Positions 1 through 56,176 of a stretch of 64,000 nt of DNA are shown piece by piece; positions within the stretch are counted from its first letter, which is position 1, and every line of letters starts with the position of its first letter. Origin of the DNA: Methanobacteriota archaeon. GTDB taxonomy: Archaea; Thermoplasmatota; E2; DHVEG-1. Both the position numbers and the translations under genes were made by a program. Below the pieces are notes generated by a model. The model made no database searches and was not told where the DNA came from. It was given only the letters and a program-made list of their open reading frames with translations. The stretch lies in contig CAIRCU010000032.1 of assembly GCA_903877165.1 (NCBI GenBank), forward strand, positions 16,747-80,746, in the 5' to 3' direction.

Positions 1-1013
1 GCTGCCGCGGCAGCCGATGCACTCGTCGGTCTTGAACTCGCAGGTCCCGCAGTGTCCTTGGAGGTACTGCTCGGCGAATCGCGCTCGTTTCATGAACGGA
101 TGGTCCATGGCCTGCTTCAAGGTCAACGAACCTTTCACTGAGGGGCGGACGTTGACGAAGTCGATGAGGACTGCGGCGCACGGCCGGGCATAGCCTTCGA
201 CTGTGATGCACATGCTGTATTCGAGCTGTCGGCATCCCGCGCCGACCAGGGGCGTGTGCACGTTCCAGTTCAACTTGTATTCTTTGTGGTCGATCTCGAG
301 GAGTTGGGCTTTGACTTCTTCGACTTCGGGGCCGGGGAGGACCCAGTCGAGGTGTCGTTTGGCTCGCCCGCTGGGTGTCATGGTTTCCATGTTGGGGAAG
401 ATGTTGTTGTCGCGGCAGAATCGCCACATCGTTGGGATTTCCTCTCGGGTCAAACGATTCAAAACGAAGGATAACCCGAGGCGTACGGTCGGTCCTTTCG
501 TAAACCCAAGGTCCATGAGGTTCTTCAGACCCGTCTCGATGTTCTTGTACGCGCCTTTCTTTCCCGCCATGAGGTCCTGGGTCGCCTCCGTGATTGAATC
601 ATGTTTCAGGAGGATTGACGCGTTGTTTTTATAGAGGAATTCAGAAAGCTTGCGATCCATGTTCTGTCCGTTGGTGATGATGACGGGGATCATGCCGAGA
701 CCGTGGATGATTTCAACGAGTTCTTTGAAGCGGGGGTAGACGGTGGGTTCGCCGCCGCCGATGATGACGACGGAGCGTGCACCGAGGTCTTTGGCCTGGT
801 GGACGATGTTTACGAGCTCTTCGTAGGTCATCTCGTTGTCTTTGGGTTCGCCGCTTTCGCGGTAGCAGTACTCACAGCGCAGGTTGCACAGAAGGCTTGT
901 TTCCAGACGCAAGGCAAGCAGACGGTTGCTGTCCCGGGCCTGCCTGGCTTCTTTGTTGCTGTAGAGGTACCCTTCGAGGACGGGAGGGTGGTGATACTGG
1001 ACAGTGGGCATTA
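1..1013 (-). CDS. radical SAM / SPASM-domain enzyme, anSME/peptide-maturase-like (partial; C-terminus runs off the window start)
   Basis: Manual minus-strand translation from ATG at ~1011-1013 reads MPTVQYHHPPVLEGYLYS... CNLRCEYCY (CX3CX2C) ... VVIIGGGEPTVYP ... C-terminal Cys clusters CRQLEYSMC..RPCAAV and GHCGTCEFKTDECIGCRG (SPASM-like). No stop codon before the window edge. Absent from the ORF track only because no stop lies in the window. Confidence 0.7.
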
Positions 1014-1202
1014 CGAGAAAATAGGTGTTAACCTAGATATAGTTTTTCTATAACGGCTCTTATTATTTTTTTAGGGGTATTTAATTTACTGGTGGAAAGG
1101 CGCTGTCGGTTTCTCATTTTTTGTTGTTCGCGACGGTCGTACTGGAGGTCTCTTTGTTATTGCCTTTGATTTGTAATTGTTAAATATATTCTTTAGAATA
1201 CA

Positions 1203-1210
1203 TTTAAATA
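1203..1210 (+). promoter_or_regulatory. putative archaeal TATA box (tttaaata) upstream of the PQQ-repeat protein gene
   Basis: AT-rich intergenic 1014-1255. The tttaaata motif sits ~45 nt upstream of ATG 1256. Confidence 0.3.
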
Positions 1211-1255
1211 ACTTATAAGTGCTTCTATCATTTAGCTTTCAGGGGGACAATAACG

Positions 1256-3073
1256 ATGGAAGCAATAACACGAAGAAGCGTCTTCATCTATGGAATTGTA
1301 TTTCTTTTACTTGGTACAAGCATTCCTTTACAGGTTCGCAGTGGAATGACTGAGTCTATGATTCTTAGTCACTCTGGAGATGGGAATTATGACAATAATC
1401 ATTCTACAAGCGATATAGATTGGTGGCCGATGTTCGGTCACGATCTTGCTCGTAGTGGATATAGCACGTCGAAAGCACCAAACACAAAAGAGTTGTTATG
1501 GAAATTCGATGCAGGAAATCCAATTTATTCATCCCCAACGGTCGCGGATGGAAAAGTGTTCATCAGCTCTCATGGTGAACCTAAAATGTTTTGCTTAAAT
1601 GCGACCGACGGCATGAAGTTGTGGGAATTCGCAAGCTCTGAAGATATGAGTGCCGCTGCTATCATAAACGACAGAGTCTACTTTTGCTCTGACACTGGTT
1701 ACGCTTATTGCTTGAATGAAACTACTGGAACTATCATATGGTCTCTGTTAACTGATTCAACGACTCAGTTAACCTCATCGCCTGCGGTCATAGATGGAAA
1801 AGTTTACTTTGGTTCAAGTTACCATAAAATGTACTGCCTCAATGCTGATAACGGGACAGTCATCTGGATTTTCAATACAGGAACAAATGGTTACGTTGGC
1901 TCTTCACCCGCTGTTGTCAATAACAAGGTGTTTTTCGGATGTCAAAACAAGAAGATATACTGCCTGAACGCGACTACAGGTACACAGATCTGGAATTATA
2001 CAACTGGAAATGAAATAGACCTTTCCACTCCATGTATATGGAACGACAAACTTTACATAGCCTCAGAAGACAGCGACGTGTATTGTATAAATGTCTCCAC
2101 TGGCGAAAAAATTTGGAATTACTCGACAGGAGGAACCCTGGATTCATCTCCCGTTATCGCCTATGGAAATGTCTATATCGGCTCCTGGGACTGGAAATTC
2201 TATTGCTTAAATGCAACATCAGGCATAAAAAAATGGGATTATTACATCGGAGACGTGGTACTATCCGCTGCCGCCGTCGCCGACAATAAAGTATACGTTG
2301 GCGCCCATCATCAATTATTTTGTTTCAACGCAACGACCGGAGTCAAAATTTGGGAGTACGCAACAGGAAACTATGTGTATTCATCTCCCGCCATTGCCAA
2401 TCGCAAGGTCTACATTGGCTCTACCGACCATAAATTCTACTGTTTTCGAGATAACCACAATCCCAATGCACCAAATTCTGCCTATCCATCAAATGGATCA
2501 ACCGAAATACCGCTCAAAATAAACCTCAGCTGGGCTGGTGGTGACCCAGATATCGAAGATACTGTGACGTACGACGTTTATTTTGGGACAGCCACTCCTC
2601 CATTAAAAGTTGCAAGTAACCTTACAACAACTACGTTCAACCCAGGGCCGCTCTGGTACAATACAACGTATTTTTGGAAGATAATTGCCTGGGATAACCA
2701 TCATGCATCTACCTCTGGGCCGATCTGGAAATTTACTACGATCAAAGACGTTACACCGCCCAGTGTTGAAATTTCACAGCCGAAGACCGGTTATCTCTAT
2801 TACAATGACCAAGAGATCATGAAAAGAATCTTTTCAAAAAATACACTTATCATCGGGCCATTGAACATCACCGTCAATTCCACAGATAACCAGACGGGAG
2901 TCAACCGTGTCATGTTCTATATTGATGACCTCCTTAGCGCGAAAATTACCTCAACTCCCTATACCTGGCTTTGGTCCCAAAAAATGTTTTTCAAACATAA
3001 AATTACGATTATATCCTATGACAATGAAGGCAATAGTAACAAGGTTGAATTATCTGTAGTCAAATTTCTTTAA
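1256..3073 (+). CDS. secreted PQQ-like beta-propeller repeat protein with C-terminal fibronectin-III/Ig-like domains
   Basis: N-terminal hydrophobic signal/anchor. About 8 tandem blades with recurring YCLNATTG(T/V)xIW / SSPAV motifs. C-terminal FN3-like segment (TYDVYFGT...WKIIAWD). Coding GC (~42%) is far below the window average (~60%). Confidence 0.75.
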   Translation: MEAITRRSVFIYGIVFLLLGTSIPLQVRSGMTESMILSHSGDGNYDNNHSTSDIDWWPMFGHDLARSGYSTSKAPNTKELLWKFDAGNPIYSSPTVADGKVFISSHGEPKMFCLNATDGMKLWEFASSEDMSAAAIINDRVYFCSDTGYAYCLNETTGTIIWSLLTDSTTQLTSSPAVIDGKVYFGSSYHKMYCLNADNGTVIWIFNTGTNGYVGSSPAVVNNKVFFGCQNKKIYCLNATTGTQIWNYTTGNEIDLSTPCIWNDKLYIASEDSDVYCINVSTGEKIWNYSTGGTLDSSPVIAYGNVYIGSWDWKFYCLNATSGIKKWDYYIGDVVLSAAAVADNKVYVGAHHQLFCFNATTGVKIWEYATGNYVYSSPAIANRKVYIGSTDHKFYCFRDNHNPNAPNSAYPSNGSTEIPLKINLSWAGGDPDIEDTVTYDVYFGTATPPLKVASNLTTTTFNPGPLWYNTTYFWKIIAWDNHHASTSGPIWKFTTIKDVTPPSVEISQPKTGYLYYNDQEIMKRIFSKNTLIIGPLNITVNSTDNQTGVNRVMFYIDDLLSAKITSTPYTWLWSQKMFFKHKITIISYDNEGNSNKVELSVVKFL

Positions 3074-3122
3074 ATCGAACTACACTGTAAAATAAAAAAT
3101 AGTAATCTTCAGAATTGCGACG

Positions 3123-3210
3123 GGAGAAAAAAACCGATAGAACCTACCTTTCTTGCCCTATTAACTGCAATCCCTTCGAGAATCGAGAAAGAGCTCGTTG
3201 AGAGATGAAC
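3123..3210. repeat. imperfect direct repeat copy 1 (~75% identical to 5226..5309); contains a degenerate tRNA-Pro 3'-end-like segment (gagctcgttgagagatgaac)
   Basis: Manual alignment. gagaaaa..cgatagaacc.ac.ttt..ccctattaac..aatccct...gagaa...cgttgaga.tgaac is shared with the region immediately 3' of and overlapping the tRNA-Pro gene. Confidence 0.5.
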
Positions 3211-3295
3211 AATGCTAAAAATGAGGGAGTCTGGTTGAACGGGATTGGTGCCACGAACATCCTGTCTTTGTCAAGGATGAAGACGGAGGACTTTC

Positions 3296-4174
3296 TCAAT
3301 GTTTCGGTTTCACAGCTACAACGGTTCCGAAATGAATGATTTTCGCTAATCCGAGCATGTCGCCGATGACGACGGCCCCCATGTAGAAATAATCATCATT
3401 TTCCGGTCTGTATTTTTTCCCAAGCAAGAGTCGTTTTATCACGGAAGCGGTGAAAAAGTACGGACCCAGGCACGTTGATCGTGCGACCGATGGTAGGATT
3501 GTCTTCGTCAGGTCTTCTACGACGACGTCTTCGAACCCATTTTTTTCAAGCAAGGTCTTGAGGTCTTTCAGGCTGATGAGGTCTGGGAATCCTCTGGCTG
3601 GACGCCAAATGTCGAGGACTTTGCGGCTCAATGATGTGAGCGGTTCATCCCGGATGAACCCGTCAAGGATGACAAACCGGCCGCCAGGCTTAATGACTCG
3701 ATACATTTCCCGAATCATCTCTTCCTTGTTCTGGGCGTAGTTATGGGACTCTTGGGCAAAGGCGCCGTCAAAATAGTTATCAGGAAACTCCGTGTGACGA
3801 TAATTCTGCAGCAGGAATTGTGTATTGTTTGTGACTCCTTCTCGTCTCGCTAACTCCTGGGCGAGCGGAATCTGATTTCGCGTAATGGTGATGCCGATGA
3901 AGGTGCTCTTTGGGAAGAGCTTCGCCAGCTGCGTCGAGGGCCCGCCGACCCCGCAGCCCGCATCGAGAATCACCCAGGATTTATCCTCAGAGATTCCTAG
4001 CAATTTACCGGCATAGTAATTCATGTAGTGCAGCGATTCGTCGAAGGAATGAACTCCTTTAACATGCATGCCGAAGTGGATAGCATGCGCATCATCGCCC
4101 TGCCACCACTTGACGAAATGCGGCCAATGACGTTCGTAGAAATCTTCTACCCCGGATTCAGGATTGTCTCCCAT
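3296..4174 (-). CDS. class I SAM-dependent methyltransferase (gamma-tocopherol/MPBQ/sterol-MT-like)
   Basis: VILDAGCGVGGPSTQLA motif I. N-terminal FYERHW...W..H.G and C-terminal IKPGGRFVILD segments are typical of the gamma-TMT / Methyltransf_11 group. Confidence 0.7.
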   Translation of the reverse strand: MGDNPESGVEDFYERHWPHFVKWWQGDDAHAIHFGMHVKGVHSFDESLHYMNYYAGKLLGISEDKSWVILDAGCGVGGPSTQLAKLFPKSTFIGITITRNQIPLAQELARREGVTNNTQFLLQNYRHTEFPDNYFDGAFAQESHNYAQNKEEMIREMYRVIKPGGRFVILDGFIRDEPLTSLSRKVLDIWRPARGFPDLISLKDLKTLLEKNGFEDVVVEDLTKTILPSVARSTCLGPYFFTASVIKRLLLGKKYRPENDDYFYMGAVVIGDMLGLAKIIHFGTVVAVKPKH

Positions 4175-4185
4175 GGTTTCACCGT

Positions 4186-5103
4186 TTACAAGATACTTGC
4201 CACCACTAAACTGATGATGAAGAGATAATTGTGGAGCGCTGCAATAAGCAGCGTGAGTTTGGACGTCCGAAGAAAGAGAGTCGTATCATTATAATTTTTT
4301 AATGCGTTGACGACAGAGACCACCGCCAAGGGAACCGTGATGAAAACGACCGCGCTCCAAACGGGGATTAGCTTGCTGTATAAAAGGATCGCGTCGCTGA
4401 CGAAGATAAGAACAAGCATGACGCCATACGCCACGACCGTCCTCTTCTTCCCTAATACGATGACCAGATTGTTTTTCTTCACTTTCTTATCCGCGTCGTA
4501 ATCCGGTATGGAAAGGATCATCCCGACGATCAATCCAATGAACGTAAAGGGAATCGCAAAGAGCATGATGGCTGGATCCAGAACACGCGTCTGCACAAAA
4601 TAGGCTCCAAAGAGCATGACGGGTCCATAGCCAATGGCTTGCGCGATTTCGCCAAAACCTCGATAGCATAACTTCACCGGAGGCGCTGTATAGAAAAAGA
4701 CAAGGAAAAAACCAAGAAGGCCCAAGAGAAGAATTGTGACGCCATCGAGAACGAAGTTCAAGTACAATCCTATGATGGAAGCGAACACTAACAAGGCGAT
4801 GGAGACACGAAAAATCGTTTTCTCTGCAATTAGCCCTTCTTGAATGACCCGGCTTCCCCCGGAAAACGGTGTCGTCACCGGATTGAGGTCATCAGCCTTT
4901 AACACATGGTCGTAGTAATCATTCAATAAATCCGTGCTGACCAAGACGGCAGTCATCGCAATCCACGTTAACAAAAACAACCACCAATTAAAGACGCGAT
5001 GCGTGTAAAACGCAAACGCTGTGGCAACAAAAATCGGCGACGACCCCGAGATCACCATATGGAAGCGCGTTGCCCGAAACCATAATCTCAAGCCCATTGC
5101 CAA
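4186..5103 (-). CDS. UbiA-superfamily aromatic prenyltransferase (MenA-like; NDYYD motif)
   Basis: Polytopic membrane protein. Asp-rich motif LNDYYDHVLKADDLN. Second motif IPDYDADKK...IVLGKK. Confidence 0.75.
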   Translation of the reverse strand: MAMGLRLWFRATRFHMVISGSSPIFVATAFAFYTHRVFNWWLFLLTWIAMTAVLVSTDLLNDYYDHVLKADDLNPVTTPFSGGSRVIQEGLIAEKTIFRVSIALLVFASIIGLYLNFVLDGVTILLLGLLGFFLVFFYTAPPVKLCYRGFGEIAQAIGYGPVMLFGAYFVQTRVLDPAIMLFAIPFTFIGLIVGMILSIPDYDADKKVKKNNLVIVLGKKRTVVAYGVMLVLIFVSDAILLYSKLIPVWSAVVFITVPLAVVSVVNALKNYNDTTLFLRTSKLTLLIAALHNYLFIISLVVASIL

Positions 5104-5225
5104 AAAAATAACGTGAAATGAGTTATATAGCTTATTTAAATTGGAGAAAAAAGGAACCCTAGCCTTATATGATGTTCTTTAGGCATGCTCCTTAAAACCA
5201 GGCCATCTAGCAGGACAGTGAGGTC

Positions 5226-5309
5226 AGGAGAAAATCGATAGAACCCACTTTTTACCCTATTAACCGAAATCCCTCCTATAACGGAGAATGGGCCCGTTGA
5301 GATTTGAAC
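5226..5309. repeat. imperfect direct repeat copy 2 (overlaps the 3' end and downstream flank of tRNA-Pro)
   Basis: See 3123..3210. Shared segment aggagaaaatcgatagaacccactttttaccctattaaccgaaatccct...gagaatgggcccgttgagatttgaac. Confidence 0.5.
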
Positions 5310-5361
5310 TCAAGTCACTTGCACCCCAAGCAAGAAGGATACCAAGCTACCCCACGGGCCC
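5289..5361 (-). tRNA. tRNA-Pro (anticodon GGG)
   Basis: Reverse complement GGGCCCGTGGGGTAGCTTGGTATCCTTCTTGCTTGGGGTGCAAGTGACTTGAGTTCAAATCTCAACGGGCCCA. 7-bp acceptor stem, anticodon stem CTTGC/GCAAG with loop TTGGGGT (U33, G37), T-loop TTCAAAT, no encoded CCA. Confidence 0.85.
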
Positions 5362-5435
5362 AGGGGATACCGGGTGCTAAGGGTGCATGCTGACAAGCCT
5401 TAATATAGTTTATTCGATTCAACTCCCCTGGTACC

Positions 5436-5720
5436 ATGAACATCGACGTCATCACGCTCCTCGGCGTGGCTGCCGGCGCCGTCACCTCCATCGGCTTCAT
5501 CCCGCAACTGCTGAAAGGCTACCGCACGAAACGCCTCACTGACGTCTCGTACGGCATGCCACTGTTCCTCACGTTCGGTATGAGCCTCTGGCTCGCCTAC
5601 GGACTCTTCCGTAACGACCTCGCGATCATCCTTGCGAATGCCTTCGGCGTCAGCTGCAATCTGCTCCTCGTCATACTGAAACACCGGTACACATCCAACG
5701 ATAAAACTGACAATTCTTAA
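5436..5720 (+). CDS. SemiSWEET / PQ-loop (MtN3-like) small membrane transporter
   Basis: 94 aa with three TM helices. PQ motif GFIPQLLKGYRTK after TM1. Confidence 0.55.
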   Translation: MNIDVITLLGVAAGAVTSIGFIPQLLKGYRTKRLTDVSYGMPLFLTFGMSLWLAYGLFRNDLAIILANAFGVSCNLLLVILKHRYTSNDKTDNS

Positions 5721-5795
5721 ATACTAGGGTCCCGCATATCTCCACAGAAACGCTGTACGAGACCTAAAATCGACTCACGTAATGAAGCGGCAACC

Positions 5796-6425
5796 ATGAA
5801 TGAGAATCCACCTGCGGCCCGCCGGAAAACAACCATGGCGGTCATCCTCATCAAGCTCATCTCCAACACCTTCTGGGAGATAGCGGACTACTTCTCCTAC
5901 AGAAGTAAAAGCGCAGCCCGGCTCTACGACACCATGATCGGTGGCGAGTACCAAGAGGAGTACGAACATTGCGGCGTCGCCAGTGCCAAGAACATCCTAC
6001 ACATCGGCTCCGGTGCATACCCGCTTACCGAGATGGCGCTCGCCGCGGTCAGCAACGGCCAGGTCGTCGGCATCGACAAGAAACCCGCGACCGTCGCCAA
6101 AGGCACCAAAGTCATCCAACGCCGCGGCCTCTCCAACCATATCACCATCCAGCATGGCGACGGCAGAAACTATCCCGTCTCCAAGTACGATACGATTATC
6201 GTCTCCAGCTGCAGCATCCCAAAGATTCCAATCCTAGAACACCTCGCCAAAGCCGCGCAACCCAAGACGCACATCATCGTCCGGGAAGTCGACATCGCCT
6301 GCCCCTACATCGAAGACTTCCTCGCCTCTCACCCGAACATGGTGATCTCCGACCGGATCCGACACAACCCCTTCCCATTCATCTACCCCATCGGTTGGAT
6401 GACATTCCGGATTCAGAAACAATAA
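5796..6425 (+). CDS. putative SAM-dependent methyltransferase-like Rossmann-fold protein (paralog of 10923..11576)
   Basis: ILHIGSGAYPLTE (Gly-rich motif I), VVGIDKK (acidic post-I), IQHGDGRNYP, DTIIVSS. Motif-for-motif match with 10923..11576. Directly upstream of a UbiA gene. Confidence 0.45.
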   Translation: MNENPPAARRKTTMAVILIKLISNTFWEIADYFSYRSKSAARLYDTMIGGEYQEEYEHCGVASAKNILHIGSGAYPLTEMALAAVSNGQVVGIDKKPATVAKGTKVIQRRGLSNHITIQHGDGRNYPVSKYDTIIVSSCSIPKIPILEHLAKAAQPKTHIIVREVDIACPYIEDFLASHPNMVISDRIRHNPFPFIYPIGWMTFRIQKQ

Positions 6426-6466
6426 GATTATTAAGACCTCTAGGTTGTTTTTCCCCCTAACTACCC

Positions 6467-7480
6467 ATGACCCAAGAGCCCACCCGACCACGCTTCTTCC
6501 ACAATCCCTTACATTTCCTGGTGACCTGGAGATCGTTTCCCGTCTATGAGCTCCTCGGCTATATCTTCATGTTTTCAGCTTCTATCATGTTTGCGTTCGG
6601 CATCCATCGCTACGCCACACAGGACTACATCGTTATCATCCTTTCCGTGGCGACTATGTACTGCGGGTTCTTCGCCGCACTCATCTGGAATGATATCACG
6701 GATCAGGATATTGACACCGTCGTTCACCCGACGCGCCCCATCCCAGGCCGGCGTATTTCTCCCAAGACGTTCTTCGGGATAGCTTTGGTGTTCTCCGCCT
6801 TGACCTTCCTCTTCGCACTTATTCTCAGTCCATGGTGCTTCATTTTGGTGGGCGCCGCTGCGTTGTTCACCGCGGTCCATAACCGCTACTTGAAGAGACT
6901 CATCAAACTCCCGGCGTACTCCGAGATCTTCACCCCGGTGCAATGGCTGGTCGTCCCCCTGTTCGGGTTCTTCGTCGTCTGGACGGTTCTGCCACACTCC
7001 GCTGACATGTTCTTCACCCTGCCCTTGCTCGGCACGCTCTCCATAGCGAAGGCGGATCTGCTACCGATGGCGCTGCTGGTGCTGTTCACATATTTCGCGG
7101 ATGATGCACATGATGTCGCGGAAGGCATCCGTGACATGGAAGGCGACCGCATCTTAGGCGTGAAAACCTATGCCATTTCGTTTGGGCCACGGACCGCGGC
7201 CGCCGTGTCCTTCAGCATGGTCGTTCTCGCCGGCATCCTCGGCATCCTCCTGTACTATTTCACGCTCCTCTCAGAGGTCTTCCTCATCCCGTTCCTCATC
7301 TTCTGGGCGTACACCCTCATCTTTTTCTATCAACTCCTGAGAACAAAGGATCTGATACAACAAAAGAAGCTTGGGCGGATGGTCGGTCGAAAAGGCTACA
7401 ATTTCCTGTTGTTCTCTTACATCTTGATGTTCATCGATCTCGCTCTGCAGCTGACGCTGGCACTGTCTCGGTCCTGCTAG
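6467..7480 (+). CDS. UbiA-family prenyltransferase
   Basis: NDITDQDIDTVVHPTRPIPGRRISPK first Asp-rich motif. DDAHDVAEGIRDMEGD second motif. About 8 TM helices. Confidence 0.75.
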   Translation: MTQEPTRPRFFHNPLHFLVTWRSFPVYELLGYIFMFSASIMFAFGIHRYATQDYIVIILSVATMYCGFFAALIWNDITDQDIDTVVHPTRPIPGRRISPKTFFGIALVFSALTFLFALILSPWCFILVGAAALFTAVHNRYLKRLIKLPAYSEIFTPVQWLVVPLFGFFVVWTVLPHSADMFFTLPLLGTLSIAKADLLPMALLVLFTYFADDAHDVAEGIRDMEGDRILGVKTYAISFGPRTAAAVSFSMVVLAGILGILLYYFTLLSEVFLIPFLIFWAYTLIFFYQLLRTKDLIQQKKLGRMVGRKGYNFLLFSYILMFIDLALQLTLALSRSC

Positions 7481-8403
7481 TGCTGCGGAGATAAGAGTCT
7501 GACGAGGAGGGCCATCTGCGCCCACAGCCGGTTCTCTGCTTCATCAATGATGACGGACTGAGGGCCGTACGCGACGTCTTTGGTGACTTCTTCGCCGTAA
7601 CAGATGGGCATGCAATGCATGAAAATTGCATCCGGCTTCGCCTTCTTCATGGTCTCCTGAGTGATGGTATAGTTCTTGAAAGCCTTGAGTCGTTCTCGGC
7701 GCTCGTTTTCGTACCAGAGAGAAATCCAGGTGTCGGTCGCGACAATGTCTGAGCCGGCGACCGCGGCAAGGTCCTCGGTAATGGTCACAGACCGTTTCTT
7801 TTTTGCAGCGACTTCCTTGGCCGTGCGGATATAGTAGTCCTGCGGCCAGTATTTCTTTGGTGAGATGACCGTGACGTCCATACCCACCATAGCGCAACCA
7901 AGCATGTAGGAATGGGTGAGGTTGTCATCTCCATCTCCGATGAACGTAAAATGCAGGCCTTGGAGTCGGCCCTTTTTTTCTTTGATGGTCTGGAGGTCTG
8001 CGAGGATCTGACAGGGATGTTCGAGTATGTCCAAACCGTTGATGACCGGAACAGTAGCGTAGGTCGCGAACTCCTGAAGGTTCTTCTCTTCTATGGCACG
8101 GTACATGATAATGTCGGCATAACGGGAAATGACCAAGGCGATATCCTGGGGGGATTCCCGGGTACCGGTGCCGACCTCTTCTTGTGAGAGGTAGACTGCA
8201 TGGCCGCCCAGCATGGTCATGCCGACTTCGAAGGAGACCCGGGTGCGCGTCGAGGCGCGCTCAAAAAGCATAGCGAGGGTTTTACCTGGGAGGTATTGGA
8301 TCGGTTTGCCTTCGTGCTTCTCTCGTTTCAGCTGGATAGCATGGTCGATGATGAATTCGATGTCGTCTTCGACATCGAGGATGGAGAGGATGTTTTTCTT
8401 CAT
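7477..8403 (-). CDS. ornithine-carbamoyltransferase-family transcarbamylase (SMG motif replaced by SLW)
   Basis: STRTRVSFEVGM carbamoyl-phosphate motif. HPCQILADL. FIGDGDDNLTHSYMLG. FMHCMP (HCLP-like). The ornithine-binding D-x-x-x-SMG position reads DTWISLW. Confidence 0.7.
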   Translation of the reverse strand: MKKNILSILDVEDDIEFIIDHAIQLKREKHEGKPIQYLPGKTLAMLFERASTRTRVSFEVGMTMLGGHAVYLSQEEVGTGTRESPQDIALVISRYADIIMYRAIEEKNLQEFATYATVPVINGLDILEHPCQILADLQTIKEKKGRLQGLHFTFIGDGDDNLTHSYMLGCAMVGMDVTVISPKKYWPQDYYIRTAKEVAAKKKRSVTITEDLAAVAGSDIVATDTWISLWYENERRERLKAFKNYTITQETMKKAKPDAIFMHCMPICYGEEVTKDVAYGPQSVIIDEAENRLWAQMALLVRLLSPQH

Positions 8404-8462
8404 GAAAACCCGGCTCCTTTGAAACCCCCTGATGTATATTAACGTTGTGAAGAACGTACCTC

Positions 8463-9779
8463 TTAGTCTTCAGGGAGGATGGTCTCGCGCGGGATCCTGG
8501 TAACGTCGAGAGATTGTCTTGTGTATGAGACTCGTGGGCGTGGCGCGAGCTGCAGGGTGGTTGAGGATTTTTTCTTCCGAGGATGGGATTCGATGTCGAT
8601 GGTGATCCCAAGGCCGTGTGGCGGTTTGAGGATGGTGAGATGGACTGCGGTGTGGCCATGGCTTGGGGAGTGGCGCAGCGGTACGTTCTTGCAGAGTCCT
8701 TGAAGCGCGGTAGTCTGGCCGTCGTCGGTGAAGGTGCCGTCGACGCGGCCGGGTAGTTCACAGAGGATGTAAGCGCGGAAAAATTTCTGTTGGGTCGGGA
8801 TGTCGATGTATTCGTAGCCGTCAGTGGTGGAGGTGAACCGTAACTTGATGGTCTTGTTGCCGAGTTTGCCGGTGACTTCCATGTCGCTGGGGTAGTAGAT
8901 GTCGTAGTCTTTGAGGTAGATGACTTTGGTGTATCTGAAGTGGACGTCGCAGAATTCCCAATATTTTTTCCCGTCTGGGGTGACGTAAAGGGTGCCGAAG
9001 GCTGGTCCGTCGTTGACCCATAGGAGGCTGTTGCCGAAGAAGAAGCTCCAGCCGTTGTCGCAGACGCCCCAGAGCCAGTCGTAGCCCAGCATATTGTTCT
9101 CGGTGGCGAAGCCGATACGGCTGGGGAGACGGTGGTGGTGCTGTGAGAACCACCAGTAGAAGAGGCGCAGGTACGTGTCCAGGGTCGTGCGCATGCCGCT
9201 CAGTCGTTGCAGGGGTTTTTCGTACGACCAGTTCCCGTACGCATGTTCGAGGTAGCCTTTGCCGTCCAGCGTGAAGGTCTTACCCTGCAGGGTCATGGTG
9301 CCGGTGAGGGCGCAGTGGGGGATGAACCCGTAGCGGTAGTGGTTGAGGCCGATGGGGAGGATGCCGTTGGTGGTCTCCTGGGTGATCCAGTGCGGGAGGG
9401 CCCGGGCGTCCATGTCGATGTCGGTGCTAAAGCCTTTGGCGTCGTCCTGGTGGTGGAGGTGGTACTTGGGGTACAGCCCCTGGAACGTGGTCTGCTTGTA
9501 TCGTAGGTCGATCCTGTTTTTCGTGGTGGTCAGTTCGCTAAGGTTGTCGTTGAGGTCCTTGTGTAGGACGCATTTTCCTGTGGTGAGGTCGATGAGGACG
9601 TATTGGAAGAAGCAGGAGGGCGGATCTTGGGTGACTGCGAACGATGTCATGAGGTTCCAGGTGTGCTGGTCATCGCGTGTGGTGAAGAAGAGTTCGGACG
9701 TCCACCATTCCTTCTTGATGGGGTGGTGGTCGCCTTCGTCTTGCGGCGTCCAGGGGTTCGCTGGTTCCATGGGTTCCAT
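8463..9779 (-). CDS. hypothetical protein, possibly CrtC/AttH-like (lipocalin-like hydratase fold)
   Basis: N-terminal KKEWWTSELFFTT segment resembles the EWWY motif region of the CrtC/AttH family and the REWWYFTAVF of 15702..17051. W/Y-rich beta-type composition. Lies between UbiA gene clusters. Confidence 0.35.
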   Translation of the reverse strand: MEPMEPANPWTPQDEGDHHPIKKEWWTSELFFTTRDDQHTWNLMTSFAVTQDPPSCFFQYVLIDLTTGKCVLHKDLNDNLSELTTTKNRIDLRYKQTTFQGLYPKYHLHHQDDAKGFSTDIDMDARALPHWITQETTNGILPIGLNHYRYGFIPHCALTGTMTLQGKTFTLDGKGYLEHAYGNWSYEKPLQRLSGMRTTLDTYLRLFYWWFSQHHHRLPSRIGFATENNMLGYDWLWGVCDNGWSFFFGNSLLWVNDGPAFGTLYVTPDGKKYWEFCDVHFRYTKVIYLKDYDIYYPSDMEVTGKLGNKTIKLRFTSTTDGYEYIDIPTQQKFFRAYILCELPGRVDGTFTDDGQTTALQGLCKNVPLRHSPSHGHTAVHLTILKPPHGLGITIDIESHPRKKKSSTTLQLAPRPRVSYTRQSLDVTRIPRETILPED

Positions 9780-9828
9780 AGGTGCCGGGCTCTCGTCCGC
9801 CTCGAAACGAGACGGTGAAATATAACCT

Positions 9829-10866
9829 TTGTCACTTGAAGGGAGGCTCTTAAGATTTATATGCGATTCACGAATTCGTAAGACCCTTGAGAGACGCGAG
9901 AGGATGACGATTTCTACGAAATTATTCGCTCATCTTGAGGCCATGCGGCCGTACACCCTGCTGTGGTGCGGTCTCGTCAGCCTCACAGGCGCAGTCCTCG
10001 CATCGCAGACGCTGCCTACTACGGCGGCCCTGATTTTCCTTGTCCCCATCCTCGGCTGGATCGCAGGGTTGTACCTCGCGGATTATTCCGACCGAAATTT
10101 GGACCGCATCCAAAAACCACACCGTCCGATCCCCTCCGGGCGCATCAAACCAAGCGAGGCGCTCCTCGTCGGCGCCGTCTTCGCCCTCGTAGGGCTTGCG
10201 CTCACCTTCATGCTCAGCCTGATAAACGTTCTGCTGACCTTCCTTGCCGCCGGCCTCGTCTACGTGTACGCCCGCTGGACGAAACCACGAGGCCTCCTGG
10301 GGAATCTGACGAGGGGGCTGCTGACCATGACGACGTTCCTCTTCGGCGTCGCCGCCGTCCACCCCGTGTCATCGTTGTCCCTTCCGATATGGATTGTCGC
10401 CGTGGTCTTCTTCATCCATGACACGAACAGCAACATCATCGGCGCCCTGAGGGACGTGACCGGAGACCAGGCCGCCGGTTGCACCACCACCCCGGTCCGC
10501 TACGGCATGCACATCGCGCTGCTCATCTCCCTGGGACTCACCCTCCTCTACCTCGGCATCACCATCACCCTCGTTGGCTCTAGCACCCTGCTCTCCTACC
10601 CCTCCTTGTTTTTTCTCATCCTAAGCCTGGGAATCGTTCTTCTCGGTATCATGTATGTCCTCCTCTTCCATTCGATCCACGCGCCATCCCAAGGACGAAT
10701 GCTACGTGCCCATGAGCTGTTCGTCGGCGAGCGCATCCTGTTCGCCTCCGCGTTCATCGTCGGATTCTTCGGTCTCACTGCATTCGCCGTCATCCTGACC
10801 GCATCCTGTCTGCTGCTCACCCTCCTGTCGCAGCACCTCTTGCGCAAACGCTACGAACTCACGTAA
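9829..10866 (+). CDS. UbiA-family prenyltransferase
   Basis: DYSDRNLDRIQKPHRPIPSGRIKP motif. Second motif HDTNSNIIGALRDVTGD. Polytopic membrane protein. Confidence 0.7.
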   Translation: MSLEGRLLRFICDSRIRKTLERRERMTISTKLFAHLEAMRPYTLLWCGLVSLTGAVLASQTLPTTAALIFLVPILGWIAGLYLADYSDRNLDRIQKPHRPIPSGRIKPSEALLVGAVFALVGLALTFMLSLINVLLTFLAAGLVYVYARWTKPRGLLGNLTRGLLTMTTFLFGVAAVHPVSSLSLPIWIVAVVFFIHDTNSNIIGALRDVTGDQAAGCTTTPVRYGMHIALLISLGLTLLYLGITITLVGSSTLLSYPSLFFLILSLGIVLLGIMYVLLFHSIHAPSQGRMLRAHELFVGERILFASAFIVGFFGLTAFAVILTASCLLLTLLSQHLLRKRYELT

Positions 10867-10922
10867 CCCCAGGGTGGAACCAGCACCTTTAAAGCACCCG
10901 TACCATATCTCAAGAGGGAATC

Positions 10923-11576
10923 ATGCCGTCCTCATTCATGACTCGCGTCTTCTCCCTTGCCCACCGGGTCGTCTTCCAAGAGGTCGGCAACAAGATTCCG
11001 ACGAACGCTCTGAAAACACTCATGGACCTCGGCTTCATTGTTTTTGAAAAAATGGGCGTCAAATTCCCTGCCATCTCCAACATATACCTGCGGTTCTACG
11101 AATCAGTCGTCCAACAAGAAGCGATGCTCGCCCAGGTCTCCAAAGGAGACAGCGTCCTCGTCATCGGCAGTGGCTCGCTGCCGGCGACGCCAATCCTCAT
11201 CGCGCGGTACACCGACGCCCACATCGTCTCCATCGACCGGGACCCCCAGGCCGTGAAAGCCAGCACCGAGTACATCCGCCGCATCCACCTCGACGACCGA
11301 CTCACCATCGCCTACGGCGAAGGACTCACCTACCCCGCCAAGGACTTCTCCGCCGTCTTCATCCTCTACGGTGTCAAGAACACACAAGCGGTCTTGGCCT
11401 CACTCCCCGACAGGATCTCGGACCATTGTCGCGTGATTCTGCGTCTCATGAGCGATAAGAACCACCAACTCCTCGACGACCTCGACATCACCAGCTACTT
11501 CACCATTAAAAAACAGGTGCACACGACCGTGCTTGGTTCGTTCGAAGCACTCCTACTTGAGAAAAAAACAACCTAG
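10923..11576 (+). CDS. putative SAM-dependent methyltransferase-like Rossmann-fold protein (paralog of 5796..6425)
   Basis: VLVIGSGSLPATP, IVSIDRDP, IAYGEGLTYP, SAVFIL. Adjacent to a UbiA gene. Confidence 0.45.
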   Translation: MPSSFMTRVFSLAHRVVFQEVGNKIPTNALKTLMDLGFIVFEKMGVKFPAISNIYLRFYESVVQQEAMLAQVSKGDSVLVIGSGSLPATPILIARYTDAHIVSIDRDPQAVKASTEYIRRIHLDDRLTIAYGEGLTYPAKDFSAVFILYGVKNTQAVLASLPDRISDHCRVILRLMSDKNHQLLDDLDITSYFTIKKQVHTTVLGSFEALLLEKKTT

Positions 11577-11662
11577 AAGTGGAAATCCCGCTTGTAGTAC
11601 CGCCGGAACGTGTAGTTCGTCCCCCGGGGGAACGGATGGATGTCCGCTTGCTCTTTGATTGA

Positions 11663-13810
11663 TCATGGGATGCTTCTTGGTCCTTTCCCTTTGTACACTG
11701 CCTCTGTGAAGTTTATCTGGCGCATGCGCGGCTGTGATGCGACCTCTTCGAAGTAATGGGCGGATAGACCCGCTATCCTCCCGTAGATGAAGAATGCTTT
11801 TGCCATCGAAGGGTCGAGTTTCATATCTGCCACTATGGCTCCGATCACCCCGTCGACGTTGATTGGCAGGCTCATTCCTCTCACCTGTTCAAAGATCGTG
11901 CTCACTATCTTGGAGAGCTGTACATGCTCACCAGCGACACCGGTCTGAGCGGAAAGCGCCCACAGCACGTCTCGGCGCGGGTCTTTTGTATGCAATCGAT
12001 GGCCTAAGCCTTCGATGCGTTTTCCTTCTTCGACGTACGTCCTCATGATCTCTCTGGTGGCTTGCGCGATGTCGATGTTCTCCTTCTCTGATTTCCTGAT
12101 ACATTCGTTGAAAAGCGCTGCTGCCTTCGCACCAGCGCCACCATGCACATCGGTTATCGCGCCGACGCCTTGAGCCACAGCGACCTCAAAAGGCGCTCTC
12201 GTGGATGCCGCGATGAGCGTCGCTTGGGCAGACGGGGGAGTCACCCCGTGGTCCACGCAGGCGACAATCATTGCTTCAATCATCCGAGACTGCTGTTCAT
12301 TCACTGTTGGATTCCCGGTGACTGCACGGTAGATGACATGTGAAAATGGTTCATTTCCACTACTCCTTTCTAGGGCTTTTTCCGTGTCCAATATTCCGCT
12401 GAGGTACCGAGCAACCCGGCCGAGGCAGAAAATCGTTTTTTTCACAGCTCCCTCTGTTCCAGCCTCAGGGAACTTCGCGAGTTCCTCGTCAAGGACGAAA
12501 TATTTCACCAGTGTTTTTGAGATATCCTCATTTTTCATGCGTGTGACTTTCGGGATGGGTCTTTGTGCTGCGTCGACAGCGATCTTTCGCATTTCCTCGA
12601 GGATTTTTTTATCGGGGAACTCTCCTTTTACGAGGAGGTAGGCCGTCTCAAGAAAACCCTTTTTCTCCACGATGTCCTGTAAGGAGTACCCAGAGATCAT
12701 CAGGTTATTTGGCATGACCTTGGTAACGAGGGTCCCCCACCCAGGTTTCTTAAAGGGTGCATCCCAGATCGTCTTCATTTTTTTGTAGTAGTTCTCCACA
12801 TCGAAGTAGGTTTTTTTCACAAGTCTCTTCTGAACCTCGGTGATGAGATCGTACTGGCTGTTCACCACGGGGACACCCGCGTTTTGCAAAGCGGTCTTCT
12901 TTGACTGGAACGTCCCGTAGACCTGCCCGGGGGAGACGATGGCGCCTGCATGGCCCATAGTTTTTCCCTCAGGGGCGTGCGCCCCGGAGATTAACGCGAC
13001 GAGTGGCTTTGGGTATTTCTTCGGGTTTTTCTTGATGTCATCTGCGAGGAGCTCTTCTTGGCATCCGCCGATTTCACCGGCGACGACGACGAGGTCAGTG
13101 TTCTTATAAGCCATGGCGAGTGGGACGAGGTCGCGGAATGTCGAGCCTATAGCACCGTCTCCGCCGACGCCGATCACAGCGTTTTGTGCGATGCCGACGC
13201 TTGCTAGTGCATCTGAGAGATGATACAGGATGGCGCCGCTTCGAGAGATGATGGTGACCCCTTTTGGCCCAAAAGCCTCAGGGGAGACTTCCTCGGGATA
13301 GAACACATCAGGGAGCATCCCTGCTTTGATTCCCTCTGGAGGGAAGATGACTCCGGGGGTGTTCCCGCCGATGAGTACGGTTTTGTGTTTCCGTGCTGCG
13401 ACAAGGATATCGCGGACGTCTTTCAACGGGATCCCTTCGCTGATGAGGATGACGACAGGGATGTCTGCTTCGATGACGTCGATGGTCGCATCCTTCGCGG
13501 TGGAATAATGCCGCCAGATGCTCGCGACTGCGATGTTGGGATGTTCTTTGAGGCATTCGCTGATGGTGTCGTAGACCGGTATCGTCTCAAGGAGCCGTGT
13601 TCCTCCGCGACCTGGGGCGATACCTGCCGTGATGGTTGTTCCGTACTGCTGCATGAGCTCCGCGTGTCGTGTCCCTTGTCCTCCAAGGCCGACGACCACG
13701 GTTTCGATGATCCCGGTTTGTTTGATTTTTTTCGCAAGATCCGGTCGTTTGTTCTCGATGATGTAGTAGAGCATTCCTTGATCCGGGGGCACGAGCTTCA
13801 TGGCTTCCAC
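11663..13810 (-). CDS. aclA: ATP-citrate lyase large subunit (CoA-binding/ligase domains plus citrate-synthase-like citryl-CoA lyase domain)
   Basis: N-terminal [12 protein letters not shown] CoA-binding region. Succinyl-CoA-synthetase-alpha-like segment. C-terminal citrate-synthase-fold segment with DVHGGAG. Start overlaps the aclB stop. Confidence 0.7.
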
Positions 13811-52734: not shown

Positions 52735-55092
52735 GTGGGGAAGAAGATGAGAGCCACAAGATTTGTTTGGAAAGCAGCCGTTCTTGGAAGCGTCTTTCTT
52801 TGTTTAAGCAGCTGTTTTGCACCGGTACTTGCCCAATCACCACAATCACCCAGCACGGATCATCCAGTATTGTCAGGAGGAAACTCTGAAAAAACCGCTC
52901 AGGTGACCTGCTATGTCATCAGTTCGCAAGGAGTGAAACAACAACAAACATCGACACTCTCTAGAACTGATGCCGAATGGCTAATGGCAAAGCTTAAGAC
53001 ACTGCGCGCTGCGACATCCGGAAGTCCTTCAAACCCGATCTCCCTGCAGAACGAGGTTCTTTCGTTTGCTGAAACGCATCACCTCCTCCCGCAAGGCGTC
53101 TCTGCAGCTTCTCTATCCGCACAATTAGCGACCACACCAGAATTTGCTCGAAAACACCTTATCTTCCCAGCGAGCTTTGGGAGCACCTCGGAATGGGTCT
53201 GCAACTTCGCGACCACGGGCGAAGGATCCGCTAAGCCTATCATCATTCTCCCAAGATTAATCCCCATTCTTCTCATCCCGATTCCACGTGCGTTCGTATC
53301 CTGGTCAACCCCGGATGGGATCACTTCGGTCGGTGGGCTCATTTCTCACACAGGGTTCATCGCCTACGGAGTGCAAAAAGGGATCGCCTTGGGGTTCTGG
53401 GGTATCGGGTTCAGCATCTTCCTACCTCCAGTTGATGCCTACGGGATTTTCGGGTACGCTCTGTTCGCAAAAGTGACCGCTCAGTATTATGAGTTCTACC
53501 CGCCGAATAACCCACCGGAGATTACACAGACTGACCCCGCTGATGGCCAGCAAATGGTGCCTATGACGACGACGAAACTGCAGTTTAGCATCTCTGATTA
53601 TGATGGGGATCTCATGAGTTTCAACGTCACCACCAGCCCGGACATCGGTTCTGGGAGTGGTGGGTTAAAGCCTGGTGGCGTCTATTCCATCCCGGTCCAA
53701 GGCCTCCAAGACCTCACGCGATACACCTGGCGAATAACCGTGACCGATGGGAAAGACACGGTGAGTAAGACTCAATCCTTCATCACTGAACCAGTAGCTC
53801 CCATTATTTCGAACGTCCTCCCTGAGGATAATGACAACGCAGTCCCTGTGGACCTCTCGCAGCTGCAATTCTACCTGAAAGACTATCAAGGGGATGCGAT
53901 GAGCTATACGGTGATGACGTCTCCTGACATTGGATCTGGCTCTGGGACTAACATCCATGATGGTACGGTGACCATCCCGGTGCATGGCCTCACCATGGCT
54001 TCAGCCTATCGATGGTATGTAAATGTCACCGACGGGACGCATTGGAATCGTAAGGTTTTCAGGTTCCAGACCTCTTATCCTGAACAGTTCAATCCGTTTG
54101 ACTACGGCTGGCACTACAGAAAGACGCTGACGATTAATCATGAGCTGGTCGATGAGAGCCTCAGTAACTTCCCTGTGCTCGTGAGCATCACTGACAATGA
54201 TTTAAAACAGAAGGCGCAGACGGACGGCAGTGATATTTTATTTATGAACGCAACAGGCGTCTCCCACAAATCATATTTCGAAATCGAGACATATCAGGGG
54301 TCGACAGGCACGCTGACCGCATGGGTCAACATACCAACTGTTTCACCAGATGCCGATGTCACGTTCTATATGTACTACGGCAATCCCGATGCCCTCACCA
54401 TTGAGGAGAAAGAAAAGACGTGGGATAATAATTACCTGGTTGTTCAACACATGCATCAGGATTCGGCAGCGAACTTCAAGGACTCCACGCATTATCACAA
54501 CGACATTATTTCTCAGACCGGGAGTCCCTCGTATCAGCAAATAGGGAAAATTGGGTATTGCGTTGGTTTTCACGGGTCAGACGCCCTTTCCTTCGCCTCG
54601 TCGATCTATAATATAGCCCCTGCGACCGTTGAGGTCTGGGGAAAGACAGAGACGACCTCGTCGGATCAGTACCTGTTCTGTGATGGTGGTGAAACCAGTC
54701 GCTCCTATGGGTTCTATTGGTATATCCAAGGCGGCCAATTTGGCACCACGATGATGAACCTGCCGAAATGGGTCGGTCAAGATGGCATCGCGACTGCCGT
54801 GCCTGGCCAATGGTATTTCTGCGCGAGCACCTGGGACGGCACGGACTCCGATGGTCATTTCGTGATTAACGACCAGGTCTTTACGAAAACTAGCGGCATC
54901 GACAATCGGAATGAGCCCGCCAATAATGCGAAGATCGGGCAATGTTCTGAAGGTCAGTACGGGTTCCATGGTCTCATCGATGAAGTCCGATTGTCCAAAG
55001 TCGCCCGAGACGTGGGATGGCTGACCACCGAGTATACCAACTCTATCAACCCCACGGCCTTTGTCGTGGTCGGAGCAGAAGAGGGGCCTTAA
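52735..55092 (+). CDS. large secreted protein with two tandem Ig/FN3-like repeats, a DUF2341-like domain and a C-terminal LamG/concanavalin-like domain
   Basis: Signal peptide. Repeats FSISDYDGDLMSFNVTTSPDIGSGSGG... and FYLKDYQGDAMSYTVMTSPDIGSGSGT.... GWHYRKTLTINHELV...FPVLVSITD...YMYYGNPDA (DUF2341 pattern). WYFCASTWDG...IDEVRLSKVARDVGWLTTEYTN (LamG-type). Confidence 0.55.
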   Translation: MGKKMRATRFVWKAAVLGSVFLCLSSCFAPVLAQSPQSPSTDHPVLSGGNSEKTAQVTCYVISSQGVKQQQTSTLSRTDAEWLMAKLKTLRAATSGSPSNPISLQNEVLSFAETHHLLPQGVSAASLSAQLATTPEFARKHLIFPASFGSTSEWVCNFATTGEGSAKPIIILPRLIPILLIPIPRAFVSWSTPDGITSVGGLISHTGFIAYGVQKGIALGFWGIGFSIFLPPVDAYGIFGYALFAKVTAQYYEFYPPNNPPEITQTDPADGQQMVPMTTTKLQFSISDYDGDLMSFNVTTSPDIGSGSGGLKPGGVYSIPVQGLQDLTRYTWRITVTDGKDTVSKTQSFITEPVAPIISNVLPEDNDNAVPVDLSQLQFYLKDYQGDAMSYTVMTSPDIGSGSGTNIHDGTVTIPVHGLTMASAYRWYVNVTDGTHWNRKVFRFQTSYPEQFNPFDYGWHYRKTLTINHELVDESLSNFPVLVSITDNDLKQKAQTDGSDILFMNATGVSHKSYFEIETYQGSTGTLTAWVNIPTVSPDADVTFYMYYGNPDALTIEEKEKTWDNNYLVVQHMHQDSAANFKDSTHYHNDIISQTGSPSYQQIGKIGYCVGFHGSDALSFASSIYNIAPATVEVWGKTETTSSDQYLFCDGGETSRSYGFYWYIQGGQFGTTMMNLPKWVGQDGIATAVPGQWYFCASTWDGTDSDGHFVINDQVFTKTSGIDNRNEPANNAKIGQCSEGQYGFHGLIDEVRLSKVARDVGWLTTEYTNSINPTAFVVVGAEEGP

Positions 55093-55115
55093 TCAGATTC
55101 CCCCCTCTCTTCCCT

Positions 55116-56075: not shown

Positions 56076-56176
56076 CGAAGAGCATATCTTCCAAGTTGTT
56101 TTAAACTCTTCGAGAATTCATTTTCCTCAGCCCCAAGTCAGCGAAAACACCGTCAGCTTCTTTCTGTAAAAGGGTA

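Follow-up and report, generated by a model that had tools for sequence, protein, structure and literature searches.

Eight-bladed PQQ_2 propellers of the BamB/YxaL type are the closest described relatives of the 605-aa protein treated here, which resembles them in its eight four-stranded blades, its blade motif, and its PQQ_2 score. Archaeal members of this type carry the annotation 'PQQ-binding-like beta-propeller repeat protein', and thousands of archaeal homologues among the matches listed join such a propeller to Ig-like or PKD tails. BamB differs in being an outer-membrane BAM factor, whereas archaea lack an outer membrane. For the full domain combination of the present protein, no homologue above 50% identity was found outside its own species among the matches listed.

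The propeller gene is divergent from a gene encoding a radical SAM enzyme (rSAM), whose closest described counterparts are SPASM/twitch enzymes such as anSME, PqqE, SuiB, CteB, SkfB, and BlsE. These share with it a CX3CX2C motif, seven C-terminal Cys residues, and the overall fold (TM 0.57-0.66), at only 16-22% identity. They differ in that this rSAM has no RRE, precursor peptide, or nearby sulfatase, and its neighbors are UbiA prenyltransferases. Radical SAM enzymes also play a heavy role in archaeal lipid and quinone chemistry (bioRxiv 10.1101/2025.10.20.683597); the enzymes of that study are B12-dependent and of a class different from that of the present rSAM.

As in tRNA-linked islands and integrative elements, the locus is atypical in composition, lies downstream of a tRNA, includes a duplicated 3′ fragment of that tRNA, and varies in presence, with other cargo found beside the matching tRNA in the related contig L008. 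Unlike such elements, it has no integrase, the tRNA fragment bounds a neighboring cassette instead of the propeller gene, and no boundary repeats could be detected around the propeller segment. Positions 1012 to ~3130 are probably a single-gene islet that was acquired laterally from a low-GC donor in the tRNA-Pro zone, and to which the rSAM gene is a neighbor by position only.

Composition and product of the low-GC islet

Over positions 1012-3300, GC content is ~41%, against 55.6% across the window (the whole stretch of 64,000 nucleotides analysed). It ranges from 0.36 to 0.47 in 300-nt windows over 1051-3300 and from 0.51 to 0.60 over 1-1050, and lies mostly between 0.53 and 0.60 in 2-kb windows from 5000 onward. 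The break to ~40% GC that the original prediction placed at 1014-3290 is thus borne out; its figure of ~60% elsewhere rightly described the flanks as richer in GC but is slightly high, the value for the whole window being 0.556. The propeller ORF (1256-3073, + strand) is the strongest codon-use outlier in the window, with a GC3 of 0.429 compared to 0.73 ± 0.08 in the 48 genes beyond 8000 (z = -3.8) and a codon adaptation z of -3.0. The rSAM gene has a GC3 of 0.754 and is native in composition, as had been proposed, while the two genes of the cassette on the far side of the islet are intermediate (MT292, 0.59; UbiA305, 0.60). A shallower GC dip (0.43-0.52) runs on past 3300 to ~5250, outside the island as first delimited. 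In addition, a second low-GC patch, at 52735-55092, likewise encodes a surface-type protein.

The islet opens with the AT-rich divergent intergenic region (1012-1255; 244 bp, 33% GC). The expected AT-rich promoter region is matched by this composition together with a TATA-like TTTAAATA at 1203-1210; 9 nt ahead of the propeller ATG sits a purine-rich AGGGGGA. The only Cys-rich ORF in the spacer (1092-1169) begins with GTG, encodes 25 aa with 6 Cys, and is unique to the host species. No alignment was obtained between the spacer and the L008 sequence.

The propeller protein scores 163 bits against Pfam PQQ_2 (PF13360; gathering score 27.6), 203 bits against Beta-prop_ACSF4, and 33 bits against Big_7. 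In its AlphaFold model (pLDDT 88.7), an N-terminal helix (residues 2-22) and a disordered linker (residues 23-65) precede eight four-stranded blades (residues ~66-400, with strand quartets at 80-398), which are followed by two beta-sandwich domains (residues ~405-495 and 503-604). The PQQ_2 score and the eight modeled blades agree with the eight-bladed PQQ-like propeller predicted at the outset. The accompanying claim of FN3 domains is only partly right, since the sole Pfam match in this region (Big_7, not FN3) lies in the second sandwich and the first is FN3-like from its shape alone. The best structural matches to the model are the designed Cake8 propeller (target TM-score 0.93, rmsd 1.3 Å), BamB, and YxaL (the latter two at 0.74-0.84). 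The blades repeat the motif [FY]C[LI]N-x-x-x-G-x-x-x-W and each contains a conserved Cys, a trait found family-wide among these propellers. The protein is enriched in Asn, Ile, Thr, Ser, and Tyr and holds 17 N-x-S/T sequons, compared to 8.3 ± 2.5 in shuffled sequences; no C/S-x-P/A-x-R motif was found in it. A quinoprotein dehydrogenase was rejected on score (TIGR03075, 102 against a cut-off of 480; TIGR03074, 36 against 833), as was BamB itself on score (TIGR03300, 148 bits against 285) and on the archaeal genomic context, comprising TFIIB, archaeal flagellin, and TATA-type promoters in relatives. The protein is a non-quinoprotein, BamB/YxaL-like, eight-bladed propeller with a predicted signal anchor.

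The tRNA-Pro zone and the distribution of the propeller gene

A tRNA-Pro(GGG) gene (5288-5362, - strand) anchors the variable zone, past which a SemiSWEET gene (5436-5720, + strand) is the first conserved gene of native GC. Between the tRNA and the islet lies a menA/ubiE-like cassette encoding a MenA-like UbiA prenyltransferase (UbiA305; 4186-5103, - strand) and a UbiE-like class I SAM methyltransferase (MT292; 3296-4174, - strand). Islet and cassette meet at repeat copy 1 (3130-3210), which consists of a decayed tRNA-Pro 3′ end (the last ~22 nt, 3189-3210) and ~60 nt of trailer, while copy 2 (5231-5309) is the trailer and 3′ end of the functional tRNA-Pro. Copy 1 is real: its Smith-Waterman score is 73, whereas shuffled sequences reach 25 at most, and the tRNA fragment repeat has ~75% identity. 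The earlier statement that the island ends exactly at repeat copy 1 (3123) is roughly right, though the nature of the repeat as a tRNA-Pro 3′ fragment had been missed. On its left side (1000-1300) the islet has no third copy, no direct or inverted repeats of at least 10 nt are common to both edges, and neither an integrase or transposase nor a target-site duplication bounds it. The genes in 1-5400 encode the rSAM, the propeller, the methyltransferase, and UbiA, with no recombinase, and Rfam at a permissive threshold returned only the tRNA from 900-5500.

The UbiA305 and MT292 proteins are 81-89% identical to those of low-GC relatives, compared to 49-66% for flanking genes. A recent transfer of the pair from a low-GC relative was rejected, as the DNA of the cassette is only 74% identical to that of such a relative and its GC3 is intermediate; older exchange and strong constraint are both possible. 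Although it lies farthest from the tRNA, the islet shows the least amelioration of all the cargo, a pattern that simple serial integration at the tRNA does not fit.

Relatives for comparison comprised a handful of contigs, all metagenome-derived, with GC contents of 30-51%. The propeller gene is present in a contig from a strain of the same species (L094), which matches window positions 1-3463 at 98.2% identity and supplied the sequence left of the window edge. It is missing from the corresponding position in L008, where the rSAM is 77% identical, the tRNA-Pro sequence is identical, and the flanking frame is kept (OTCase-UbiA337-MT209-SemiSWEET ... rSAM-UbiA316-VTT-flippase); the gap is filled instead by a histidine kinase (HisKA, GC3 0.36) and a MiaB-like rSAM (GC3 0.60). 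In L135, L137, and L139, the MT292 homologue is followed by an AsnC-type regulator, with neither the propeller gene nor repeat copy 1 beyond it. No other relative with a matching gene frame has the propeller gene, leaving L094 as the sole carrier besides the window; the original prediction would have been undercut by the same low-GC gene at this position in relatives, and these four contigs do not have it.

In a word-index protein search over at most 8000 candidates, in which a closer homologue may have been missed, the closest propeller homologues among the matches listed are 43-46% identical and lie on contigs of 31-41% GC, with the sole exception of L099 (53% GC). The GC3 of the propeller gene matches both the low-GC relatives and the contigs of these closest homologues among the matches listed. 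Since gene GC tracks host GC, the family is not intrinsically AT-rich. No donor was found, as the next-best protein among the matches listed is at most 50% identical and covers a partial length; viral contigs and plasmids yielded no relative of the islet. Synonymous divergence between L094 and the window is ~4x lower in the propeller gene than in the rSAM gene (0.026 and 0.111; Fisher p = 2e-5). A recent arrival or spread of the gene is proposed from this value, which could partly reflect mutation bias differing at AT-rich sites. A pN/pS of 0.30 between the strains suggests a working gene. Lateral acquisition, as first claimed, is supported by presence in a single species and by closest homologues (among the matches listed) on low-GC contigs, together with GC3 and low synonymous divergence.

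The radical SAM gene and its UbiA neighbors

The rSAM gene (1-1011, - strand) has the first 337 of its 376 codons inside the window, with the remainder of the full protein (376 aa; P0001) beyond the window edge. Radical_SAM (PF04055; 82 bits) is its sole Pfam match above the gathering score. C42, C46, and C49 of the CX3CX2C motif are invariant in 17 sequences, as are seven C-terminal Cys residues (C260, C278, C321, C324, C331, C334, and C360) that give the protein a SPASM-like character. The spacing among them is CX2CX6CX2C, while canonical SPASM spacing is CX2CX5CX3C, and PF13186 (SPASM) is undetected up to E = 1 and only weak in relatives. The designation 'anSME or peptide-maturase type' given by the original prediction is not supported: the highest NCBIfam score, 80 bits, falls short of the cut-off of 500. 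Profile matching to anSME structures gives E = 1e-7 (34 bits); the 25 best-scoring NCBIfam families include no anSME model, and no sulfatase was found among the annotated genes. Since no curated family cut-off is reached, the rSAM is not an anSME. A RiPP-maturing rSAM was also rejected, as there is neither an RRE/PqqD-like domain nor a conserved precursor ORF across 12 loci. The rSAM core begins at residue ~35 and so leaves no room for an RRE domain, and no conserved small ORF was found within 700 nt of the gene at those loci. The protein belongs to no recognizable housekeeping family either, a classification that would have counted against the original prediction.

Orthologues that are 57-77% identical and have no propeller neighbor occur at seven loci (L001, L003, L005, L008, L091, L135, and L139). 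Members of the family have ~360-390 residues and come from Thermoplasmatota-related archaea and Methanosarcina, as well as from bacteria, including CPR lineages and Omnitrophota. A genome-contig search with the single rSAM protein gave no match, and with an rSAM alignment the closest among the matches listed is 45% identical (a Thermoplasmatales MAG); close relatives come from metagenome contigs only. In eight of nine archaeal lineages, Methanosarcina included, a UbiA gene lies 0-6.5 kb from the rSAM gene, which never adjoins a propeller gene in those lineages. The Methanosarcina homologue is at 8001-9143 of locus L089, followed by two UbiA genes at 11349-13333. Beside the islet, the conserved set comprises the rSAM, UbiA, a DedA/UptA-like protein, and a flippase-like protein. 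As the conserved partners are UbiA prenyltransferases, an isoprenoid lipid, a quinone, or a polyprenyl-linked compound is the more likely substrate. Tentatively, the archaeal family may be a dedicated UbiA partner that, with NAS/CntL-like SAM enzymes, SemiSWEET, and polyprenyl-phosphate flippase-like proteins, makes or modifies an uncharacterised compound of this kind, with the propeller islet irrelevant to it. Several steps of archaeal lipid and quinone chemistry are not known to have an assigned enzyme. Literature searches on rSAM/UbiA/SPASM systems and methanophenazine biosynthesis gave nothing that matches this rSAM family.

Alternative readings and meaning of the islet

The divergent arrangement across a 244-bp spacer could suggest that the rSAM is a maturase of the secreted propeller or of a small peptide from the spacer. 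The 25-aa, 6-Cys ORF and the conserved Cys in each blade would offer substrates, and the rSAM model resembles the peptide-modifying SkfB, SuiB, CteB, anSME, and PqqE. This reading is now highly improbable, having been largely refuted by synteny: the pairing is confined to one species, and the family occurs with no propeller neighbor at the seven loci above and beside or near UbiA genes in relatives that lack the propeller. The Cys-rich ORF, GTG-started and species-unique, is unconserved across the 12 loci. Neither substrate suggested in the original prediction is supported. The absence of space for an RRE and of the C/S-x-P/A-x-R motif also speaks against a maturase. Moreover, the blade Cys recurs throughout this propeller family, and the fold class of the rSAM also spans the small-molecule enzymes BlsE, DesII, and MoaA.

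For the origin of the gene, it is rather unlikely that 1012-5288 is a single integrative-element remnant at the tRNA-Pro 3′ end, by which the propeller, methyltransferase, and MenA-like prenyltransferase were imported together. The stretch adjoins that 3′ end, lies entirely below the window GC, contains the internal copy of the tRNA end and trailer (3130-3210), and includes the cassette with its high similarity to low-GC relatives. However, those relatives have the order tRNA-Pro, UbiA305, MT292 in common without the propeller, GC3 is unlike between the parts (0.43 against 0.59-0.60), and the tRNA fragment lies between the parts, not at the outer limits of the stretch, with no third copy at 1000-1300 and no integrase. 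Unlikely as well is a native propeller gene, with low GC as the outcome of relaxed or diversifying selection acting on a surface gene that evolves fast and is weakly expressed, and with loss accounting for its absence elsewhere. Surface-protein genes are often atypical in composition, as is the surface-type patch at 52735-55092, and the amino-acid enrichment of the propeller and the absence of mobility genes and flanking repeats are compatible with such an origin. However, the deviation lies at third codon positions (0.43 against 0.73), beyond amino-acid content, and homologues adopt host GC, e.g., L099. Absence from all examined relatives except the 98% strain would require several independent losses, and synonymous divergence below that of the flanking gene is the reverse of fast evolution.

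Under the preferred reading of a single-gene lateral islet, the recipient would be one comparatively high-GC species (55.6% GC, Thermoplasmatota-related), and the landing site a zone prone to recombination that lies downstream of tRNA-Pro(GGG), between the menA/ubiE-like cassette and the set of rSAM, UbiA, DedA/UptA-like, and flippase-like genes. The islet would bring its own archaeal-type promoter. Its product would be exported, and anchored or targeted through the N-terminal hydrophobic helix, with a non-catalytic propeller of BamB/YxaL type borne on two Ig-like domains. The propeller would most likely serve outside the cell as an N-glycosylated module for binding or adhesion, and the rSAM would be a native neighbor linked to it by position alone.

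The finding is real but ordinary, since the islet holds a single gene and the rSAM belongs to a conserved prenyltransferase set with no propeller link. Alone, the islet matters little, being one more laterally acquired surface-protein gene beside a tRNA in an uncultured archaeon. It does caution that divergent adjacency to a SPASM-type rSAM is insufficient to infer a maturase-substrate pair, a question that synteny from a few relatives settled here. The association of the rSAM with UbiA is perhaps worth more than the islet, as it concerns an unclassified family with consistent linkage across archaea.

Composition and layout of the propeller locus

GC content in 300-nt windows falls from 0.51-0.60 at 1-1050 to 0.36-0.47 at 1051-3300, recovers partially to 0.43-0.52 until ~5250, and past that point lies mostly at 0.53-0.60 (2-kb windows). 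The low-GC island noted beside the radical SAM gene (1-1011, - strand, cut by the window edge) and containing the divergent propeller gene (1256-3073, + strand) is real by both sliding GC and GC3, though the accompanying figure of about 60% elsewhere was a bit generous, since GC over the entire window is 55.6%. Codon use was compared across 57 long open reading frames (ORFs) from greedy calling, with the 48 starting past position 8000 as background (GC3 0.727 ± 0.079). The propeller ORF is the largest codon-use outlier among the window genes (GC3 0.429, z = -3.8; codon adaptation, z = -3.0), and the radical SAM gene is native (GC3 0.754). Intermediate values are found for the UbiE-like methyltransferase gene MT292 (3296-4174, - strand; GC3 0.59, z = -1.7) and the MenA-like prenyltransferase gene UbiA305 (4186-5103, - strand; GC3 0.60, z = -1.6). 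Two genes lie in a second low-GC patch at 52735-56250, beside tRNA-Met(CAT) (56177-56250): one for a LamG/DUF2341 protein of surface type (785 aa, GC3 0.58), the other for a methyltransferase (319 aa, GC3 0.45, z = -3.5).

The window reads radical SAM, propeller, tRNA fragment, MT292, UbiA305, tRNA-Pro(GGG) (5288-5362, - strand), SemiSWEET, the SAM-enzyme gene MT209, the prenyltransferase gene UbiA337, and OTCase. To its left, on the source contig and on contig L094 of a same-species strain, lie the prenyltransferase gene UbiA316 and genes for a DedA/UptA-like and a flippase-like protein. The tRNA fragment (~3130-3210), the "repeat copy 1" at which the island was said to end, is a 75%-identical copy of the last ~22 nt of tRNA-Pro and its trailer (5231-5309), with a local alignment score of 73 where shuffles reach at most 25. 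It is the mark of an older junction, bordering the menA/ubiE-like cassette of MT292 and UbiA305. The TATA regions of the propeller gene (1202-1217, ATTTAAATAACTTATA) and the UbiA305 operon (5126-5141, ATTTAAATAAGCTATA, - strand) match at 14/16 positions, which probably reflects a local archaeal promoter consensus.

The propeller protein

Pfam matches on the 605-aa protein comprise PQQ_2 (163 bits), Beta-prop_ACSF4 (203 bits), and Big_7. It falls short of the quinoprotein dehydrogenase models and of the BamB equivalog models. In the AlphaFold model (pLDDT 88.7), residues 2-22 form a helix, followed by a disordered linker and by eight blades of four strands each, with two beta-sandwich domains behind them; among PDB structures, Foldseek ranks highest the eight-bladed design Cake8 (target TM 0.93), BamB, and YxaL. 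The predicted eight-bladed PQQ-like propeller is borne out; the plural "FN3 domains" reduce to one C-terminal domain that is FN3-like by shape alone, without a Pfam match. No sign of PQQ chemistry was seen in the protein, which contains seven [FY]C[LIF]N-x3-G-x3-W motifs and 17 N-x-S/T sequons (8.3 ± 2.5 in shuffles). The N-terminal helix, sequon excess, non-catalytic propeller type, and Ig-like stalk suggest a putative exported, glycosylated binding module. The protein is a further case of a known kind, the archaeal PQQ-like propeller surface protein.

Relatives and origin of the islet

The propeller gene occurs at this position in no relative examined except strain L094 (98.2% DNA identity to the window). 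Contig L008 of a relative (radical SAM 77%, OTCase 84%) keeps both flanking blocks and has between them a histidine kinase gene of low GC, tRNA-Pro, and a radical SAM gene of MiaB-like type. The kinase lies on a 2-kb low-GC segment (4301-6353; GC3 0.36) inserted upstream of the same tRNA-Pro. A direct repeat of 16 nt (AAACTATATTAAGRCT, at 4301 and 6338) borders the segment on both sides and resembles a duplicated stretch of target or promoter. Four relatives of ~40% GC (L091, L135, L137, and L139; radical SAM 57%) carry SemiSWEET, tRNA-Pro, UbiA305, and MT292; in L135, L137, and L139 an AsnC-type regulator comes next, and the L091 contig is cut inside the MT292 homologue. The cassette shared with the low-GC relatives is 81-89% identical in protein (window 3296-5103; L135 9072-10879; L139 5598-7398) and the syntenic flanking proteins 49-66%, a difference that may stem from exchange inside the clade or from unusually strong constraint.

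Horizontal acquisition of the propeller gene is supported by its outlying GC3, its absence from relatives other than the 98% strain, and homologues mostly on low-GC contigs. Protein searches gave no homologue above 50% identity besides the gene itself among the matches listed; the closest metagenomic homologues are 43-46% identical and lie on contigs of 31-41% GC, except one at 53% (L099). Gene GC tracks host GC across the homologues. Since nearly all host relatives are low-GC (30-42%; L001 and L008, 49-51%), a low-GC donor pool is near at hand. Between window 1-3463 and L094 8745-12208, synonymous divergence is fourfold lower in the propeller gene than in the radical SAM gene (0.026 and 0.111; p = 2e-5), and pN/pS between window and L094 is 0.30. 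The L094 contig stops ~390 nt past the propeller gene, just beyond the tRNA-fragment repeat, which could be an assembly break from strain variation.

The segment from 1012 to ~3130, propeller gene plus promoter, is most likely a laterally acquired, species-specific islet in a variable zone downstream of tRNA-Pro. Unlike a classical integrative island, it has no integrase; nor were repeats common to both its edges, or viral or plasmid relatives, found. It sits in a tRNA-associated variable region.

The radical SAM enzyme and its UbiA neighbourhood

The full-length radical SAM protein (376 aa) keeps CX3CX2C and seven invariant C-terminal cysteines across 17 homologues. Its model (pLDDT 90.6) resembles SkfB, BlsE, SuiB, CteB, anSME, and PqqE (TM 0.57-0.66, identity 16-22%), a class spanning peptide-modifying and small-molecule enzymes, so fold class does not decide the substrate. 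Pfam SPASM is undetected even at E = 1. The enzyme had been predicted to be of anSME or peptide-maturase type; HMM classification places it below every curated NCBIfam cut-off (top NirJ2, 80 bits vs 500), and it is no anSME. It is SPASM-like, but its family is unclassified and matches no characterised one.

The proposal that it modifies the propeller or a nearby peptide is not supported: its gene is linked to UbiA, no small ORF beside it is conserved in related loci, and a sulfatase-type motif is absent from the propeller protein. The spacer between the two genes holds a 25-aa ORF with six cysteines (1092-1169, + strand, GTG start; MERRCRFLIFCCSRRSYWRSLCYCL), which has no counterpart in any related locus, is specific to this species, and is probably a chance ORF within T/G-rich sequence.

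UbiA genes are dense at 4186-11576 (4186-5103, 6467-7480, and 9829-10866, with UbiA316 just left of the window at L094 7678-8628), together with NAS/CntL-like SAM enzymes (5796-6425, 10923-11576) and a 438-aa protein of unknown type (8463-9779). The UbiA, NAS/CntL-like, and 438-aa gene set stays together with OTCase in L003, L008, L009, L091, and L135. Small ORFs (~61, 133, 63-76 [DUF5678], and 66-70 aa) recur beside this neighbourhood in several relatives despite surrounding rearrangements (source contig left of the window; L008 13190-14434; L139 8666-9804). At 11663-13810 (- strand), a 715-aa fusion joins CoA-binding/CoA-ligase domains to a citrate synthase-like C-terminal domain, an architecture like ATP-citrate lyase or citryl-CoA synthetase/lyase.

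In a scan of radical SAM loci with a profile from ten UbiA sequences, 0/14 bacterial loci had UbiA near the radical SAM gene. The same profile placed UbiA 0-6.5 kb from it in L003, L005, L008, L009, L012, L089, and L091, which with the window makes eight of nine archaeal lineages, including Methanosarcina; L001 is the sole exception. In L003, methyltransferase, UbiA, and radical SAM genes are tightly packed and co-directional. This linkage of radical SAM and UbiA genes, outside the original finding, is the sole mildly novel point.
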